IMG/VR virus record: IMGVR_UViG_2904196114_000002
Source: a virus
Lineage: Duplodnaviria > Caudoviricetes
Length of the DNA: 64,000 nucleotides
Direction: 5' to 3' (one strand)
Shown here in pieces: positions 1,592 to 56,059 of the stretch. Within the stretch, counting starts at the first letter, position 1; every line of letters begins with the position of its first letter. The notes under the pieces were generated by a model. That model was not told the DNA's origin and searched no databases. It saw only the letters and a program-made list of their open reading frames with translations. The position numbers were made by a program, and so were the translations under genes.

Positions 1592-4500
1592 TTAAAGCGT
1601 AGTCTCATCTATAGAAAATATCATAGATGGTCTTTTTATTGCAGTCCAATTATCACCTTTTTCAACTATGATTTTAGGCTCTGCTTGTGTCATTCCTTTT
1701 TCTTCCAACTCATAAATTTCTTGATATCCTGTATCAACTTTTTTCATTTCTAATAAATTCATATCTTTATGCATACCTGTGTTATTTGTTTTAACTTGAA
1801 CCTTTAGTTGATTTATAAGTTGATAAATTATATCTCCTACGCTTATATTATCTTCTAATGCTCTATCTAATGTTATTACAAGCTTACCATCTGCACTATT
1901 TGTTAAAGAATTTATGTTATACTTTTTATTCTTAATAAATAGATTAGCCCCTTCTGAAATATTTATAGAATTATTCTCTTTATTAATTGTTGCTCCTAGA
2001 TACATATTATCTCCAAATAAAGTATTAGCTTTAAAGTATATATTATTTATACCAAGATTCAATTTTTCAAGCGGAATAGTGAACAGCACAAAATTATTGA
2101 TAAATTCATTCTTTGAATGTATTAATTCATTGTTTAAATACATTTCAATTTTATCAATTTCATTATTTGAATCATTAACTTTTAATTTTATACCAGCTAT
2201 AGTTTTTTCAGCTAATTCTATAGATGGTTTTGTTGTAGGTACTTGGTAATTCATAAATAAAGTTTCATCTCTTCCAGCATCTAAATAAACTAAATCATTA
2301 TTAAATTCTTCTGGTATTTGAACTTTATTAAATATATATGGATTATTAGATTTCATATTATAACAATCTCTTATTTTGCCACATATCCATAAAGATTTAT
2401 CTAACTTTCTAAAAGATATATAATCTCCACCTATCTCTACATCTTCTACATCTACATCTAGTTTAGTAAATGTTTTTATTATAGTATTTGCAGAAGCTTC
2501 ACCTAATCCAAAATTACTAAATCTATTCAATCCTTGACCCCATACAGAATTATCATTTAATAATACTAAAGTAAACTTATCATCACACATTACTTTCTTT
2601 ACATTAGATATATTTACTCTTTGTAATCCATTTACCTCATTATTATGACCTAGCCCTAGTTGGTATTCTGAATTTAATCCTGTTGAATACAAAGTACCAT
2701 CATTTTTCAGAAAATATGAGAATCCAACGCCACATGAAGCTTGTCTTATATCTGCAAAATTTAGTTTAGTAAAGCTTGTCAACGAAGTTGTTGTTCTTGG
2801 ATTTAATAATTGACCATATATATTCTCTCCACATCCAAATAACTCTCCACTTGTATTTACAATCAATGAATGAGTCTTTGACATCCAAAATTCTTTTATG
2901 TTATCTTGTAATTCTATTCTATCATTATCTATATCATAATTTTCTTTATATACAGAGCCTAAAACGCTTTTATAATTTATATCACTTCGTGATGGTATTA
3001 TATATTTGTTATTTATCAGATTAAAATTATTGTTTAATATATAATTATTCAAAGTGTCAAATCTATAAAGGTAATGTCCTTCTATTTTAGTAATTTCATT
3101 TACAGAACCATCACTTACTCCTAAACCAAGTTGCCCATAACCATTATATCCTACACTGAAAATAGCACCATCATTTTTAATTACAAAAGTAACAGAATCG
3201 CTACAAGCAATTTCTTTTATATTATCTATATCAACTTTTGTAAATGTAGTTCTCTGTGTATTATCACCTAAACAAAGTTGACTATAAGAATTATTTCCTG
3301 TACTCCAAATACTCCCATCTTCTTTTAATATAAATGTATGATTACTAGCACATATGACTTCTTTAACATTATCTATATTAACTTTAGTAAATACATTTCT
3401 ATTAGTAGTATCACCTAAACCTAATTGACCACTATAGTTAAATCCACATGAATATAAAGTTCCATCATTCTTGATTATAAAGGTGTATGCCTGTCCACAA
3501 GCAATCTTTTTAACATTATCAATATCAACCTTTGTAAATATATTTCTTTGTGCAATATCACCTAAGCCTAACTCTCCATAACTATTATTTCCTGTACTCC
3601 AAATACTCCCATCTTCTTTTTGTATAAATGTTTGATTATTTCCACATATAATTTCTTTTACATTATCAATATCAACTTTAGTAAACACATTTCTATTAGT
3701 AGTATCGCCCAAACCTAATTGACCATTAGAATTAAGACCTGTACTCCACACAGTATTGTCATTTTTTAATATAACTGTTTGGTTCCAGCCACATATAACT
3801 TTTTTCACATTATCAATATCAACTTTAGTAAACACATTTCTATTAGTAGTATCACCTAAACCTAATTGACCATTAGAATTATTACCACTATTCCATACAG
3901 TCCCATCATTTTTCAATACAACCACATGCATTTTCCCACATACAACATCTTTTATATTTTCCACATTCATTCTAGTAAATACTCTTTTGCCAGCAGTATC
4001 ACCTAAACCTAATTGACCATAGGAACTACTACCACTACCCCATAAAGTATTGTCATTCTTTAATATGAAAGAAGTATCTCCTAATACGATTTTATAATTG
4101 TTTGCATATTCTGTGAAATTATTTTTTAGTTCTATATTAACTTTAGTAAATACATTTCTATTAGTAGTATCACCTAAACCTAATTGACCACTAGTATTCA
4201 TCCCACATGAGTATAAAGTTCCATCATTTTTTAGTAGAAATGTAGAATCACCACTAGATATTCCATTTTTAATATTTTCAATATTAATCTTAGTAAATAT
4301 TAACTTATCAAAATTATCACCTAAACCCAACTGTCCATAATTATTTAGACCACATGCCCATACTGTATTATCATTTTTAATTATAAATGTGTGATACATA
4401 CCACATATAATTTCTTTTACATTATCAATACCAACCTTAGTGAATACATTTCTTTGTGTAGTATCACCTAATCCTAATTGTCCTTTGCTGTTTTCACCTA

Positions 4501-52816: not shown

Positions 52817-52868
52817 ATAAATATCATTATCAATATATTAAGTAAAAAATAAATAGTCTAATGTTAAT

Positions 52869-53057
52869 TTATTGGACTATTGTTTCACTTAATCTTATCG
52901 TTATATTTAAATCTGTTTTTCCAATATACTGGTCAAAAACATCACTAGATAACACTTCATTATCACCATTTTTTGTATGCTCTATAAATTTATAAGTACC
53001 ATCTTCTTGTTTTATTACTTCACATTTTTCTAAAATTGTTCCTTTATTATTTTTCAT
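52869..53057 (-). CDS. Small YonK-like hypothetical protein
   Basis: 62 aa, RBS AAGGAG; precedes the metallophosphoesterase as in SPbeta-like phages. Confidence 0.55.
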   Translation of the reverse strand: MKNNKGTILEKCEVIKQEDGTYKFIEHTKNGDNEVLSSDVFDQYIGKTDLNITIRLSETIVQ

Positions 53058-53108
53058 ATATTTTCTCCTTTATTTTTATATTATATAACTCTACTGGGAA
53101 TATATTTG

Positions 53109-53403
53109 TTTGCAAATTAGGCAGCCTTGTAGCTAACAATAGCTAATATAAGTTAACGCATTTCGCATTTATCAAGGATTTTATATAACTTTTTTATTTT
53201 ATTTTTGATATTTTAATAATTTAATCTTTTATACTTGAGATTTCACATTTGAATTTTTAACTTTAAGCTTTATATCCATTATTCTCTTTTATACAGTACA
53301 ATCGTTTCGTTTGTATGTACCCATCACTTTTATATAAGCAGTTTGATTTTTAACCCAAAATCAATGGGAACTTATAATTTATGTTATTCGCCTAACCTGC
53401 AAA
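53109..53403 (-). ncRNA. Putative structured RNA with heptad-repeat array
   Basis: 14-bp closing stem UUUGCAGGUUAGGC/GCCUAAUUUGCAAA; several internal helices; 7 tandem AAANNUN-type heptads; no ORF. Confidence 0.7.
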
Positions 53404-53426
53404 TTAAAAAATAGTCCAATTAAGGA

Positions 53427-54044
53427 CTATTTTAAATCTACATCTATAATTGTAAGTGCATTTGATGTACTCAATGCAAAATCAACTTCCTTTTCAAATT
53501 CTTCTATTTCATTCCTTAACTTTTCTATTTTCTCTCTTACTTTTAAAGGGTCTACTAAAGACCATTCCTGTTGTTTTTTATAAAATGAAATAAGTTCTGC
53601 TCCATCTTTACTTTTTTCTTTTTCCTCAAACATTTTATCTGTATTTCTTTGTACTTCTTCATTTCTACGATTTACTTCAGACATCATACAATCATAGTTA
53701 CTAACCATTTGTCTCAACAAGGATTTATCTAATTCTATACTATTCTTTCTTTTTATTGCTTCTAAAACCGTATAATTTTTATTAGCAATTTGAACATTTG
53801 TTATAGCATTAGAGATATTAATTGCTTTATCTAATGCATTATAATTATATATTAAATCTTCTATTTGCTGGTATTTACTTGAAACTTCTACATTAAAATC
53901 TTCTACACTTGTTTTTGTTTCATATACATTTTTATCAGAACCTTTTTTAGTACCTACAATTTTAAAATTACTAATGCATCTATCTATCTTATCTTCTAAT
54001 AACTTCTTTTCTGCTAAAGCTTTATGAACATTATATTTAACCAT
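53427..54044 (-). CDS. Coiled-coil protein resembling the DIP1984/DUF6847 family
   Basis: KALAEKKLL N-terminus; duplicated motif AINISNAIT / ALSTSNALT; TVLEAI; family call from memory. Confidence 0.6.
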   Translation of the reverse strand: MVKYNVHKALAEKKLLEDKIDRCISNFKIVGTKKGSDKNVYETKTSVEDFNVEVSSKYQQIEDLIYNYNALDKAINISNAITNVQIANKNYTVLEAIKRKNSIELDKSLLRQMVSNYDCMMSEVNRRNEEVQRNTDKMFEEKEKSKDGAELISFYKKQQEWSLVDPLKVREKIEKLRNEIEEFEKEVDFALSTSNALTIIDVDLK

Positions 54045-54099: not shown

Positions 54100-54189
54100 T
54101 GGAAGAGAGGAAGGGATTTGAACCCTCGTATCAATTAATTGACCTAATAGTTTAGCAAACTATCCTCTTTACCACTTGAGTACCTCTCC
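54100..54189 (-). tRNA. tRNA-Ser (GCT)
   Basis: GGAGAGG acceptor, ATAGT-TTGCTAA-ACTAT anticodon arm, long variable arm, GGTTCAAATCC T arm, encoded CCA. Confidence 0.9.
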
Positions 54190-54194
54190 ATATT

Positions 54195-54271
54195 TGGTAG
54201 GAATAATAGGAGTCGAACCTATGACCTTTCGGGTATGAACCGAACGCTCTAGCCACCTGAGCTATATCCCT
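54195..54271 (-). tRNA. tRNA-Met (CAT), elongator-like
   Basis: AGGGATATAGCTCAGGTGGCTAGAGCG TTCGG-TTCATAC-CCGAA AGGTC ATAGG-TTCGACT-CCTAT TATTCCT ACCA. Confidence 0.9.
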
Positions 54272-54485: not shown

Positions 54486-55049
54486 CTACTTATTACATAT
54501 TTTATATAATGTTTCTTGTTTCTTTTTTGTTCTTTTTCTAATTTTTTCAATTCTATAATTACATTCTTTTAAATAATTAATGAATTTATTAGCAGACATT
54601 ACTCTTCTTTTATTATCTTTTAACTCATATGTATTGATGATATTTTCCAATTCATATTTAAATAACCATTTATTTAAATAGTCATCTTGTATAACCAGTC
54701 CTTCTTCTAATAATTTATTTTGTTTCTTTATTTTTTCTTTGCCTATTGCTGCATCTATATCAGCACAACCTTTACATTGTCCATTGCTCCAATAATATAA
54801 TTGCAATTTTACCTCATAATCTAATGCATCTTTTTCATTTTCAAAATACTTAATAATATCAACATTATAATTATAGTTATTGTTTTTTACTATATCATAC
54901 CATTTTTCATTTCTGATTTGATTATAAATTCTGTCTCCAATTCCTTTTCCAATATAAAAGACATTCTCTTTACCATCATGATCTATAATGTAATGTTTAT
55001 AAACATAATATTTATCCTTTTCAAAGTATTGTAAATTCATAACATACAC
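54486..55049 (-). CDS. GIY-YIG-like endonuclease
   Basis: YYVYKH...VFYIGKG..DR...ALDYE motif. Confidence 0.65.
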   Translation of the reverse strand: MYVMNLQYFEKDKYYVYKHYIIDHDGKENVFYIGKGIGDRIYNQIRNEKWYDIVKNNNYNYNVDIIKYFENEKDALDYEVKLQLYYWSNGQCKGCADIDAAIGKEKIKKQNKLLEEGLVIQDDYLNKWLFKYELENIINTYELKDNKRRVMSANKFINYLKECNYRIEKIRKRTKKKQETLYKICNK

Positions 55050-55067: not shown

Positions 55068-55135
55068 AAAAAAATCCGATGACCTGCATATTGATATATA
55101 TATTTATATAAGTATGCGAGTTATCGGAAAAATTA
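55068..55135. repeat. Large imperfect palindrome, copy 1
   Basis: TCCGATGACCTGCATA-(TTGATATATATATTTATATAAG)-TATGCGAGTTATCGGA; related copy at 62715-62783. Confidence 0.8.
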
Positions 55136-56059
55136 ATATGAGTTGTATTTTACTAGTTTATTATTAATATTACTATTATTATTTCTATACCTAAAAGCTT
55201 TAACAATTATATCTAATAACTCTTTATTTTTCATAACATTAGTTCTATATTCTGTCTTATGTACTTGATATAACTTAACTAATCCTATTTCTCTTGCAAA
55301 TTCATTGAATGCTATGTATTTATCTTTCTGAGTTACATTTAATTCATGTTTATTATGTTTCACCATATTTACTACTCTATTATAATTTTCTTTATCTTTT
55401 AAAAATGGTGTATTTGCTATAATTCTACATGCATTTAGATAATCTTCATACAAACTATTATCAACTATGATATTTTCTTTTCTTTTAAAGTTTATATTTT
55501 TATCTGCTACCAGTCTAACCTGATATCTAAAATTATCTAATTCTTTATCTTGATTTACTCTATTTTTACAATTTTCTTTATGTGGTATTAATTCACTTTT
55601 AATACTTAAGACATCTATATCTTTAAATGTAGCATATGTAACTGTTTTAGATAGATTAGAGGGCATAAAGATATTATTTTTAATTAATTTATTTTTATAT
55701 CTTGATATGGTATTTTTGTCCACTCCTACTATATTTGCAATTTGATTTGATGATAATATACTCATATTCCCCTTTATATCTTGCATAGTTAGAATCACAG
55801 CCATGTAATATAATAATTTATTTATATCTACTTTACTATCAAATTTCCAGACATTATAAGCAATTTGTTTAAAAATATCATATGCTATATATTCACTGTC
55901 TTTTATTTCTTTTCTATAAAACTTTCTTTTTTTACCTTTTCCATCATAAAAAATATTATTTTCTTCTAATTTAGAAGCATATTTTTTAAAATCTTTATAT
56001 AACGTATTTTCACTAACACATATTATCTTGCTTACTTCTTTTATATTTATTTCTTCTAT
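55133..56059 (-). CDS. Double-HTH DNA-binding protein (~308 aa, probable ATA start)
   Basis: Frame is open from ATA 56059 (RBS GAGAGGA) through the track ORF starting at 55804; HTH-like INIKEVSKIICVSENTLYK and SNQIANIVGVDKNTISRYK. Confidence 0.6.
   Translation of the reverse strand: MEEINIKEVSKIICVSENTLYKDFKKYASKLEENNIFYDGKGKKRKFYRKEIKDSEYIAYDIFKQIAYNVWKFDSKVDINKLLYYMAVILTMQDIKGNMSILSSNQIANIVGVDKNTISRYKNKLIKNNIFMPSNLSKTVTYATFKDIDVLSIKSELIPHKENCKNRVNQDKELDNFRYQVRLVADKNINFKRKENIIVDNSLYEDYLNACRIIANTPFLKDKENYNRVVNMVKHNKHELNVTQKDKYIAFNEFAREIGLVKLYQVHKTEYRTNVMKNKELLDIIVKAFRYRNNNSNINNKLVKYNSY

Follow-up and report, generated by a model that had tools for sequence, protein, structure and literature searches.

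This study concerns a 64,000-nt stretch of viral DNA (Duplodnaviria, Caudoviricetes; IMG/VR record IMGVR_UViG_2904196114_000002), hereafter the window, which is part of a ~130-kb Clostridioides difficile plasmid-phage of the phiCD211/phiCD5763 type. On the minus strand of the window, the gene of a 205-aa helical protein (53427-54044) is followed by a 295-nt RNA (53109-53403), and the two probably constitute one two-part module, a ribonucleoprotein (RNP). The element was confirmed to be a genuine conserved structured RNA on the strand of the gene. The evidence also supports its strict linkage to the DIP1984-like gene, in phages and prophages that are very distantly related. The pair had been pointed out in a first-pass annotation made from the DNA letters, and the sequence and coordinates given there for both partners were correct. 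The features of the locus are listed in Table 1.

Table 1. Positions of the gene, the RNA and the parts of the RNA in the window
Feature	Position	Strand	Remarks
tRNA-Ser(GCU) and tRNA-Met(CAU)	54100-54271	-	Directly upstream of the 205-aa gene, same strand
205-aa helical protein gene, phrog_1491	53427-54044	-	Open reading frame (ORF); PHROG profile match
Stop-codon-overlapping hairpin	53408-53433	-	10 bp, 3 G-C pairs, then U-run; terminator-like
Whole structured RNA, 295 nt	53109-53403	-	From P1 5' arm to P1 3' arm
P1 closing stem, 5' arm	53389-53403	-	UUUGCAGGUUAGGCG; ends in conserved (C/U)G, then near-invariant AA
PK2, 5' strand	53369-53376	-	UAUAAGUU
PK1, H-type pseudoknot	53343-53368	-	In 22/22 homologues, same distance from P1
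PK1, stem S1	53368-53366 with 53356-53354	-	CCC with GGG
PK1, stem S2	53364-53357 with 53350-53343	-	UUGAUUUU with AAAAUCAA
Variable region with local hairpin	53272-53342	-	Different hairpins in other lineages; a YrlA-like tRNA mimic in Erwinia phage Simmy50
Repeat array	53179-53271	-	Seven AAAGNUY-type heptads (53271-53223), two 8-mers to 53207, A-rich tail into P3'
P3', 5' strand	53173-53177	-	CCUUG, within conserved AAAAUCCUUGAU
PK2, 3' strand	53147-53154	-	AACUUAUA, within the 3' domain
3'-domain hairpin	53130-53145	-	UAGCUA-UUGU-UAGCUA
P3', 3' strand	53125-53129	-	CAAGG, then conserved C-UG opening the P1 3' arm
P1 closing stem, 3' arm	53109-53123	-	UGCCUAAUUUGCAAA

Structure and conservation of the RNA element

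The RNA is closed by the stem P1, which is the longest long-range stem of the region. A closing stem of 14 bp with two G-U pairs had been described previously; the stem is indeed present, but it has 15 bp including three G-U pairs. The minimum free energy (MFE) fold of the RNA has a z-score of -3.06, and none of 200 shuffles was as good. This fold contains P1, the helices UUGAUUUU/AAAAUCAA and CCUUG/CAAGG, and the UAGCUA hairpin. Both of these helices had been proposed in the first-pass annotation, and they were found not only in the window but also, with covarying sequences, in distant homologues. The UACAA/UUGUA pairing of the same annotation forms a local hairpin within the region that varies between lineages. 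No ORF of at least 40 codons was found on the strand of the gene within the gap.

Homologous loci were opened from metagenomic relatives (59%, 44% and 36% identity) and from named phages, namely Bacillus Hobo, the T5-like Salmonella Spc35, Lactococcus P1048, Brevibacillus Jenst, the Erwinia jumbo phage Simmy50, Aeromonas LAh_8, Escherichia 4MG, Xoo-sp15, Vibrio GRLPWR, and Pseudomonas KIL1. All of them have a long unannotated gap of the same anatomy behind the gene, on the same strand. Over 29 loci, P1 averages 14.8 contiguous bp, compared with 9.5 bp when the arms were shuffled, and its register is fixed in most of them (about 24 by eye), with (C/U)G then AA, and GGC then UG. The sequences of the arms are unrelated between lineages, and G-U pairs are common. 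The frequent G-U pairs identify the transcribed strand and argue against a palindrome at the DNA level.

The pseudoknot PK1 was found by per-sequence pseudoknot searches with shuffled controls. It is present in all 22 distinct loci (score 28 vs 14.8 for the shuffled sequences) and starts 16-21 nt after P1. Both of its stems covary; the S1 versions, for example, include CCC/GGG, UCCG/CGGA, GUCC/GGAC and CGU/ACG. A CCCAU/AUGGG helix had been suggested for this region, but in the 22 homologues the C-run pairs instead with a G-run in the neighbouring hairpin loop.

The helix P3' lies within the conserved frame AAAUCC-NNG ... CNN-GGCUG and was predicted unaided by RNAalifold. Among 29 distinct sequences, P3' was 97.2% paired, compared with 68.9% in the shuffled control, with 40 double changes; 74 matches from bacterial genomes, which form an independent set, gave 99.7% pairing and 92 double changes. 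The second pseudoknot, PK2, is formed by 8-12 nt immediately 5' of PK1, whose pairing partner has a constant place within the 3' domain. Its compensatory versions include AUCUUA/UAAGAU, AUCUUG/CAAGAU, UUACGC/GCGUAA and UAGACU/GGUCUA. In a position-specific test the observed pairing was reached by none of 2000 cross-locus permutations; a crude wide-window search gave a weak signal (7.3 vs 6.3). The crossing of UAUAAGUU/AACUUAUA with CCUUG/CAAGG, which had been read from the window as a possible pseudoknot, is thus borne out by the covariation and by the permutations. With PK1 and PK2 together, the RNA is doubly pseudoknotted, and the array becomes a loop held at both ends in a compact core.

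These elements were combined in a family definition, which comprises the 3' domain with P3', the closing stem bounded by (C/U)G then AA and by GGC then UG, PK1 at 16-21 nt after P1, PK2, and the AAAG array. The window scores 72.2 bits (E 9.4e-13), the window sequence being part of the seed alignment. P1 is in register there, PK1 starts from position 20, and PK2 has 8 bp. Measured from one arm of P1 to the other, the RNA has about 295 nt in the window and about 357 nt in T5-like phages.

Linkage to the gene and distribution

A covariance model, R1, covers the 106-nt 3' domain. One same-strand R1 match was found 230-430 nt behind the phrog_1491 homologue in each of the 30 sources searched, which include T5-like, Bastille-like, Lactococcus, Vibrio, Pseudomonas and Erwinia phages. 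At 13 loci that had no part in building the model, the E values ranged from 5e-11 to 4e-5. The whole 64-kb window holds a single match (53106-53211), and scans of the whole records of Spc35, Hobo, P1048, 4MG and the nearest relative of the window also gave one match each, at the same spot. The first-pass annotation had proposed to inspect the region downstream of homologous genes; a structured heptad RNA lies there, and its helices covary across taxa.

The module is also found in bacterial genomes, including Bacillus, Lysinibacillus, Brevibacillus, Clostridia and others. These loci, which are probably prophages, were found through the protein, and 73 of 80 have an R1 match at the same position and on the same strand. 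Three of the seven loci without a match are truncated, and the other four have their best sub-threshold match at the expected place. A tblastn search with the protein gave matches in 731 phage records. The carriers include T5-like phages, Bastille-like phages, Vequintavirinae, jumbo Erwinia phages, Lactococcus phages, SPbeta-like prophages and C. difficile plasmid-phages. An obligatory tie between the module and tRNA clusters was considered and rejected, since a same-strand tRNA lies within the locus in only 22 of 75 cases.

Several homologous loci carry further features. A contig of a Parabacteroides metagenome-assembled genome (L117) has two tandem copies of the RNA 3' domain (2318-2424 and 2680-2782) with one gene. 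In the Aeromonas phage LAh_8 (L030), a gene annotated as a ProQ-like RNA chaperone (1103-1399) is directly upstream of the phrog_1491 homologue. In Jenst (L028), a match to the BsrG type I toxin RNA (3040-3314, 119 bits) lies just downstream of the module. Several phages and prophages carry a skipping-rope RNA (RF02924) no more than 1-2 kb away from the module (L028, 2505-2582; L021, 2388-2472; L068, 545-632; L070, 542-629; L126, 2522-2650).

The partner protein

The window protein matches phrog_1491 over residues 1-203 (E 8.6e-71). This family, with more than 2,100 clusters at 50% identity, is labelled 'tail fiber protein', a label that is not supported by the fold or the gene context and is regarded as a mislabel. 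The AlphaFold2 model (mean predicted local distance difference test, pLDDT, 94.8) is mostly a helical bundle with a small sheet. It consists of two beta-alpha-alpha-beta halves, and a SNAxT motif followed by a strand closes each half. A mostly helical protein with a duplicated SNAxT motif had been anticipated from the translation, and both the model and the positions of the two motifs (SNAIT, 78-82; SNALT, 194-198) agree with it. The invariant or near-invariant residues (K14, K72, S78-T82, T92-K100 and D188-T198) are located at helix ends beside the sheet, so that in the model the conserved residues appear to gather at the sheet end of the bundle.

The closest solved structure is 3KDQ (chain 3kdq_A), a Corynebacterium diphtheriae protein of unknown function, with Z 10.1, 151 of 152 residues aligned and a root-mean-square deviation of 7.5; this match is about 2 Z units above the next one, and the Z score is only moderate for helical bundles. 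Foldseek gave a probability of 1.00 for the same structure (E 0.018). No RAMP or Cas protein was present in the structural match lists of the window protein, whose best PDB match was 3KDQ. No match at threshold was obtained against Pfam and NCBIfam, DUF6847 (PF20935) and NF038048 included. Weak matches to the hidden Markov model (HMM) of DUF6847 were found in 6 of 46 family members (best E 0.0029), and an ESM Atlas cluster with DUF6847 matches the window protein with template modelling (TM) scores of 0.57/0.67. The DIP1984/DUF6847 proteins (PF20935, often labelled 'septicolysin') thus share the fold of 3KDQ with the window protein; however, the latter is about 50 residues longer and stays below the HMM thresholds. 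The previous designation as DIP1984-like holds at the level of the fold but not as a family membership by these thresholds. As DUF6847 itself has no known function, the fold match gives no mechanistic explanation.

The repeat array

In the window, the self-match of the array at a lag of 7 nt has a z-score of 3.3, which was reached by one of 500 dinucleotide shuffles. The most frequent distance between successive AAG triplets over 75 loci is also 7 nt (101 cases), followed by 8 (45), 6 (39), 14 (33) and 21 nt (16). The 7-nt periodic array recognised in the first-pass annotation was therefore found again both in the window and among its relatives. The unit logo is U-Y-A-A-A-G-N, with six of seven positions constrained and one free, which fits a repeated binding site. 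The predicted pairing probability in the window is 0.38 within the array, compared with 0.62 elsewhere.

In two sets of distinct copies, 13 from C. difficile phages and 24 from T5-like phages, the array is no less conserved than the remainder of the RNA, and no hypervariable array positions were found. Two heptads of the window, AAAUGUG and AAGUAUA (within 53223-53250), are degenerate. Among the 12 other distinct C. difficile-phage copies, most have AAAAGAG and all have AAGUAGA at these places; the window array is slightly eroded at the two units. A by-eye idea that the heptads mimic or complement an anticodon loop or the 3' end of 16S rRNA was unsupported and was dropped.

The transcript and its ends

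The interval between the gene and the RNA is too short for a promoter. The likeliest route would be one transcript for the gene and the RNA, which in the window would include the upstream tRNAs, followed by processing. In 4MG and in L017, a tRNA begins 3-6 nt after P1, so that cleavage by RNase P would be expected at this point. Hobo, P1048, Jenst and KIL1 have an intrinsic terminator behind the RNA. Over 75 loci, a terminator was found within 100 nt in 26 and a tRNA within 40 nt in 4, and neither was found, by the criteria applied here, in 45, including the window.

Hairpins near the stop codon are also present in other loci. L017 has an equivalent one without the U-run, and more hairpins were found in L021, L024 and Hobo. 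In the window, the hairpins after the 62-aa gene that lies downstream of the RNA (52851-52881) and after the 205-aa gene (53408-53433) share sequence (AAATAGTCTAAT and AAATAGTCCAAT), and they are 558 nt apart. These terminator-like hairpins flank the RNA plus the 62-aa gene like a cassette.

Proposed mechanism and alternative explanations

The reading that we consider probable, on balance, is a dedicated RNP: the helical protein would bind as protomers that recognise the UYAAAGN units of the closed array. The RNA provides a compact core made of P1, the 5' pseudoknot PK1, the long-range helix P3', and PK2, which joins the 5' linker to the 3' domain. The 90-100-nt U-Y-A-A-A-G-N array is anchored at both ends in this core, giving a topologically closed loop. 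Several copies of the protein might then bind the array, about one per unit of 7-8 nt. The contact may be made through the conserved end of the bundle, where the four-stranded sheet, both SNAxT motifs and conserved lysines are located. Such a particle would have a defined size and could be likened to the complexes of TRAP with its triplets or of Vipr with its 5-nt repeats. Because virulent as well as temperate phages of many phyla have retained the module, its role might lie on the side of the phage, perhaps in taking over the host, or against defences or competing elements.

A more specific version is put forward tentatively, and we hold it to be somewhat short of probable. The module could represent an unrecognised and widespread class of phage RNPs, in which a closed loop of ~10-13 UYAAAGN units carries one DIP1984-fold protomer on each unit. 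The resulting ring- or barrel-like particle might have a conserved target in the cell or in a rival phage, and might, for example, sequester or shield a component of translation or RNA metabolism.

Some observations weigh against an RNP of this kind. Adjacency of a gene and an RNA is by itself no proof of physical association. The protein family is mildly acidic (isoelectric point of the window protein 5.7, family median 5.5), which is unusual for an RNA binder and counts somewhat against simple RNA binding. The periodicity is loose, being 8 nt in the T5-like phages, Simmy50 and KIL1, and Hobo and Jenst show no single lag, their arrays being broken up by hairpins. The mean pairing probability over 14 homologues is 0.56 in the array, compared with 0.62 elsewhere, so the array is not clearly unpaired. 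The apparently unpaired state proposed in the first-pass annotation is thus predicted for the window, whose array is left mostly open, but not generally, and single-strandedness is an assumption. Moreover, in the window the gene is separated from the RNA by a hairpin that resembles a terminator. This hairpin over the stop codon had been noticed before and was found again at 53433-53408. As it runs directly into the 5' arm of the RNA, it is probably leaky, or a processing or stability hairpin.

Other explanations of the same locus were compared with the RNP. The RNA might work alone, as an RNA-only machine or multimer like ROOL and GOLLD, with a protein that is merely co-transcribed or helps the RNA to fold or to be stable. 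The elaborate, doubly knotted architecture and the acidic protein speak for this, and other orphan phage RNAs are close by, such as the skipping-rope matches beside homologous loci. Long non-coding RNAs (ncRNAs) adjoin tRNA genes in Kayvirus phages (PMC10383478), and GOLLD and ROOL assemble RNA-only complexes (bioRxiv 10.1101/2024.12.08.627333), which count in the same direction. However, the gene and the RNA are linked 1:1, on the same strand and in a fixed order across phyla, which is far tighter than for an unrelated neighbour. The repeated short motif with six of seven positions constrained resembles a protein-binding array, and the Rfam models of ROOL and GOLLD gave no match; an RNA acting alone is therefore regarded as unlikely. 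The element might also be a cis-acting 3' untranslated region (UTR) of the mRNA of the protein, used for autoregulation, mRNA stabilisation or cis-preferential assembly. The RNA is invariably 3' of the gene on its strand, there is no room for a promoter between them, and the 45 of 75 loci lacking a terminator or tRNA just after the RNA would agree with it. On the other hand, ~300-440 nt and two pseudoknots are well beyond the needs of known 3' stabilisers, and the precise 3' end given by a tRNA (4MG, L017) or a terminator (Hobo, P1048, Jenst, KIL1) suggests a discrete species. The two tandem 3'-domain copies behind one gene in L117 also fit poorly, and a 3' UTR seems quite improbable.

A type III-like toxin-antitoxin (TA) or abortive infection system, made of a toxic protein and a repeat RNA that neutralises it, had been offered as an alternative in the first-pass annotation. 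A protein gene and a repeat RNA with a terminator-like hairpin between them recall such systems in the window, and a plasmid-prophage replicon could gain from addiction. However, the 7-nt units belong to a large knotted RNA, whereas type III antitoxins have ~34-36-nt tandem repeats cut to monomers; the RNA is downstream of the gene, whereas in ToxIN-like systems it is upstream of the endoribonuclease toxin gene. The protein folds into a helical bundle and lacks a nuclease-like domain, PADLOC gave no match for the pair, and the pair exists as a single copy in strictly virulent phages, for example the T5-like ones. A TA system is thus disfavoured by unit size, gene order, fold and the presence in virulent phages, and we consider it very unlikely. 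A VIPR-like RNA guide, in which each unit is held by the protein at its conserved part and recognises a gapped nucleic-acid target with its variable part, would resemble VIPR in combining a phage protein with a tandem short-repeat RNA beside a pseudoknotted part. Nevertheless, each heptad has a single free position, the pattern is AAAGNUY with period 7 rather than YNNGG with period 5, and the protein has an all-helical DIP1984-like bundle instead of the RAMP/RRM type. The array is conserved like the rest of the RNA in close relatives; since its units are not hypervariable there, a programmable guide is very unlikely. The least plausible explanation, to which we give almost no weight, is an element acting as DNA, which might be a promoter region with an A-tract or UP element, a set of iterons, or a site for packaging in front of the terminase module. 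In its favour, the sequence is rich in A and T and has runs of A, it contains a promoter-resembling TTGATA...TATATT, and the 62-aa, YonJ-like, YonG-like and terminase genes lie downstream of it. However, a promoter scan was at chance (12 found vs 12.0 expected), and four helices are kept by compensatory changes, with G-U pairs that work on the strand of the gene only. Furthermore, the neighbours in other phages are wholly different (endolysin, topoisomerase, tRNAs), and a period of 7 nt is not the helical repeat of DNA.

If the protein and the RNA do form a particle, it would be an unstudied RNP in hundreds of cultured phages, in prophages and in C. difficile plasmid-phages. Model systems such as T5-infected E. 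coli or the phages of Bacillus would allow direct tests. The particle would also give a function to a large DUF family, the first one for the orphan, 'septicolysin'-labelled DUF6847, and would correct the widespread 'tail fiber' and 'septicolysin' mis-annotation. The RNA would enter the catalogue as a new family of large structured RNAs.

Genomic context

The Clostridioides phage ES-S-0107-01 is 93% identical to the window over 1.7 kb around the gene and the RNA, and the non-coding gap itself shares 95-96% identity with seven C. difficile plasmids of 127-136 kb. On the minus strand, the order is tRNA-Met, tRNA-Ser, the 205-aa gene, the stop-codon hairpin, the 295-nt RNA, a 51-nt spacer and the 62-aa gene. 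The genes around the module are SPbeta-like and include those for an HU-like protein, a sigma factor, a YonJ-like metallophosphoesterase/exonuclease, a YonG-like protein, the large terminase and the portal.

The 62-aa gene (52869-53057, minus strand) belongs to phrog_21503 and has a weak match to the DNA-binding domain of the Tn916 integrase (E 0.0024, below the cut-off). In the relatives with 59% identity, its position is taken by a 59-aa gene. Upstream of the tRNAs, on the minus strand, are two genes with weak PADLOC matches, namely 54486-55049 (PD-T4-3, E 9e-5) and 55133-55804 (PDC-S05, E 7e-6, in a helix-turn-helix region). These are possibly defence- or regulator-like morons. In ES-S-0107-01 (L001, ~2870-4230), the interval separating the tRNA-Ser gene from its upstream neighbour gene is ~1.2 kb longer than in the window, which indicates that the tRNA region differs among phages that are otherwise 93-94% identical.

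Comparison with known RNAs and systems

At the gathering score, Rfam 15 gave only the two tRNA matches in the window. With E values up to 10, the region 53000-53480 gave only chance-level matches to SraG, GP20-a and freshwater-2, and nothing covering the element was found over 46 homologous loci. RAGATH-27 (RF03100) and RAGATH-19 (RF03096) had no match at the element in five whole phage records. No publication describing the gene-RNA pair was found either, in line with the first-pass annotation, according to which the pair is not known to have a described function. Among the RNAs compared, no described counterpart to a closed repeat array held by two pseudoknots was found.

The idea of one subunit per short RNA motif has precedents. 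In Bacillus, TRAP on the trp leader RNA and HutP on the hut leader are oligomers that read evenly spaced short RNA motifs, one per subunit; these motifs are of the type of (G/U)AG triplets with 2-3-nt spacers. However, their fold is unrelated to that of the window protein, and the RNAs that they bind are mRNA leaders with a regulatory task rather than knotted molecules that stand alone. The phage array has a period of 7-8 nt and a U-Y-A-A-A-G core, and the binding of subunits to it is predicted.

The RNAs bound by Ro60 (Rsr), namely the Y RNAs (YrlA), are also closed by pairing of the 5' and 3' ends and are encoded beside their protein partner. In the Erwinia phage Simmy50 (L029, 2160-2223), a YrlA-like tRNA mimic lies within the element (44.5 bits, with a cut-off of 69). 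Nevertheless, no Ro60/TROVE protein is present here, the window RNA lacks a tRNA-like module, and the Y RNAs have neither heptad arrays nor the two pseudoknots. ROOL, GOLLD and skipping-rope RNAs are large or ornate ncRNAs of phages or prophages, often located by tRNA clusters and of unknown function. They differ in having no dedicated partner gene, and none of them matched the element in Rfam 15. The element also differs from the 7-nt periodic cluster of bioRxiv 10.64898/2026.10.21.760802, which has inverted arrays in Patescibacteriota and no protein partner.

VIPR consists of the RAMP protein Vipr and a vrRNA, along whose repeats the protomers polymerise (bioRxiv 10.64898/2026.04.26.720920, 10.64898/2026.04.26.720927). 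Like the module described here, it combines a small phage-encoded protein with a short-tandem-repeat RNA (9-16 repeats in VIPR) that adjoins a structured, pseudoknotted part. The VIPR repeat is YNNGG with period 5 and a hypervariable NN, whereas the phage array is AAAGNUY with period 7 and one free position. Moreover, the VIPR protein is of the RAMP/RRM type (RRM core, G-loop and thumb), whereas the window protein is a DIP1984-like helical bundle, and no vap gene is present at the phrog_1491 locus. If the protein and the RNA do assemble into a particle, the module would represent a third repeat-RNA/protein principle, next to the CRISPR-type and the VIPR-type complexes.

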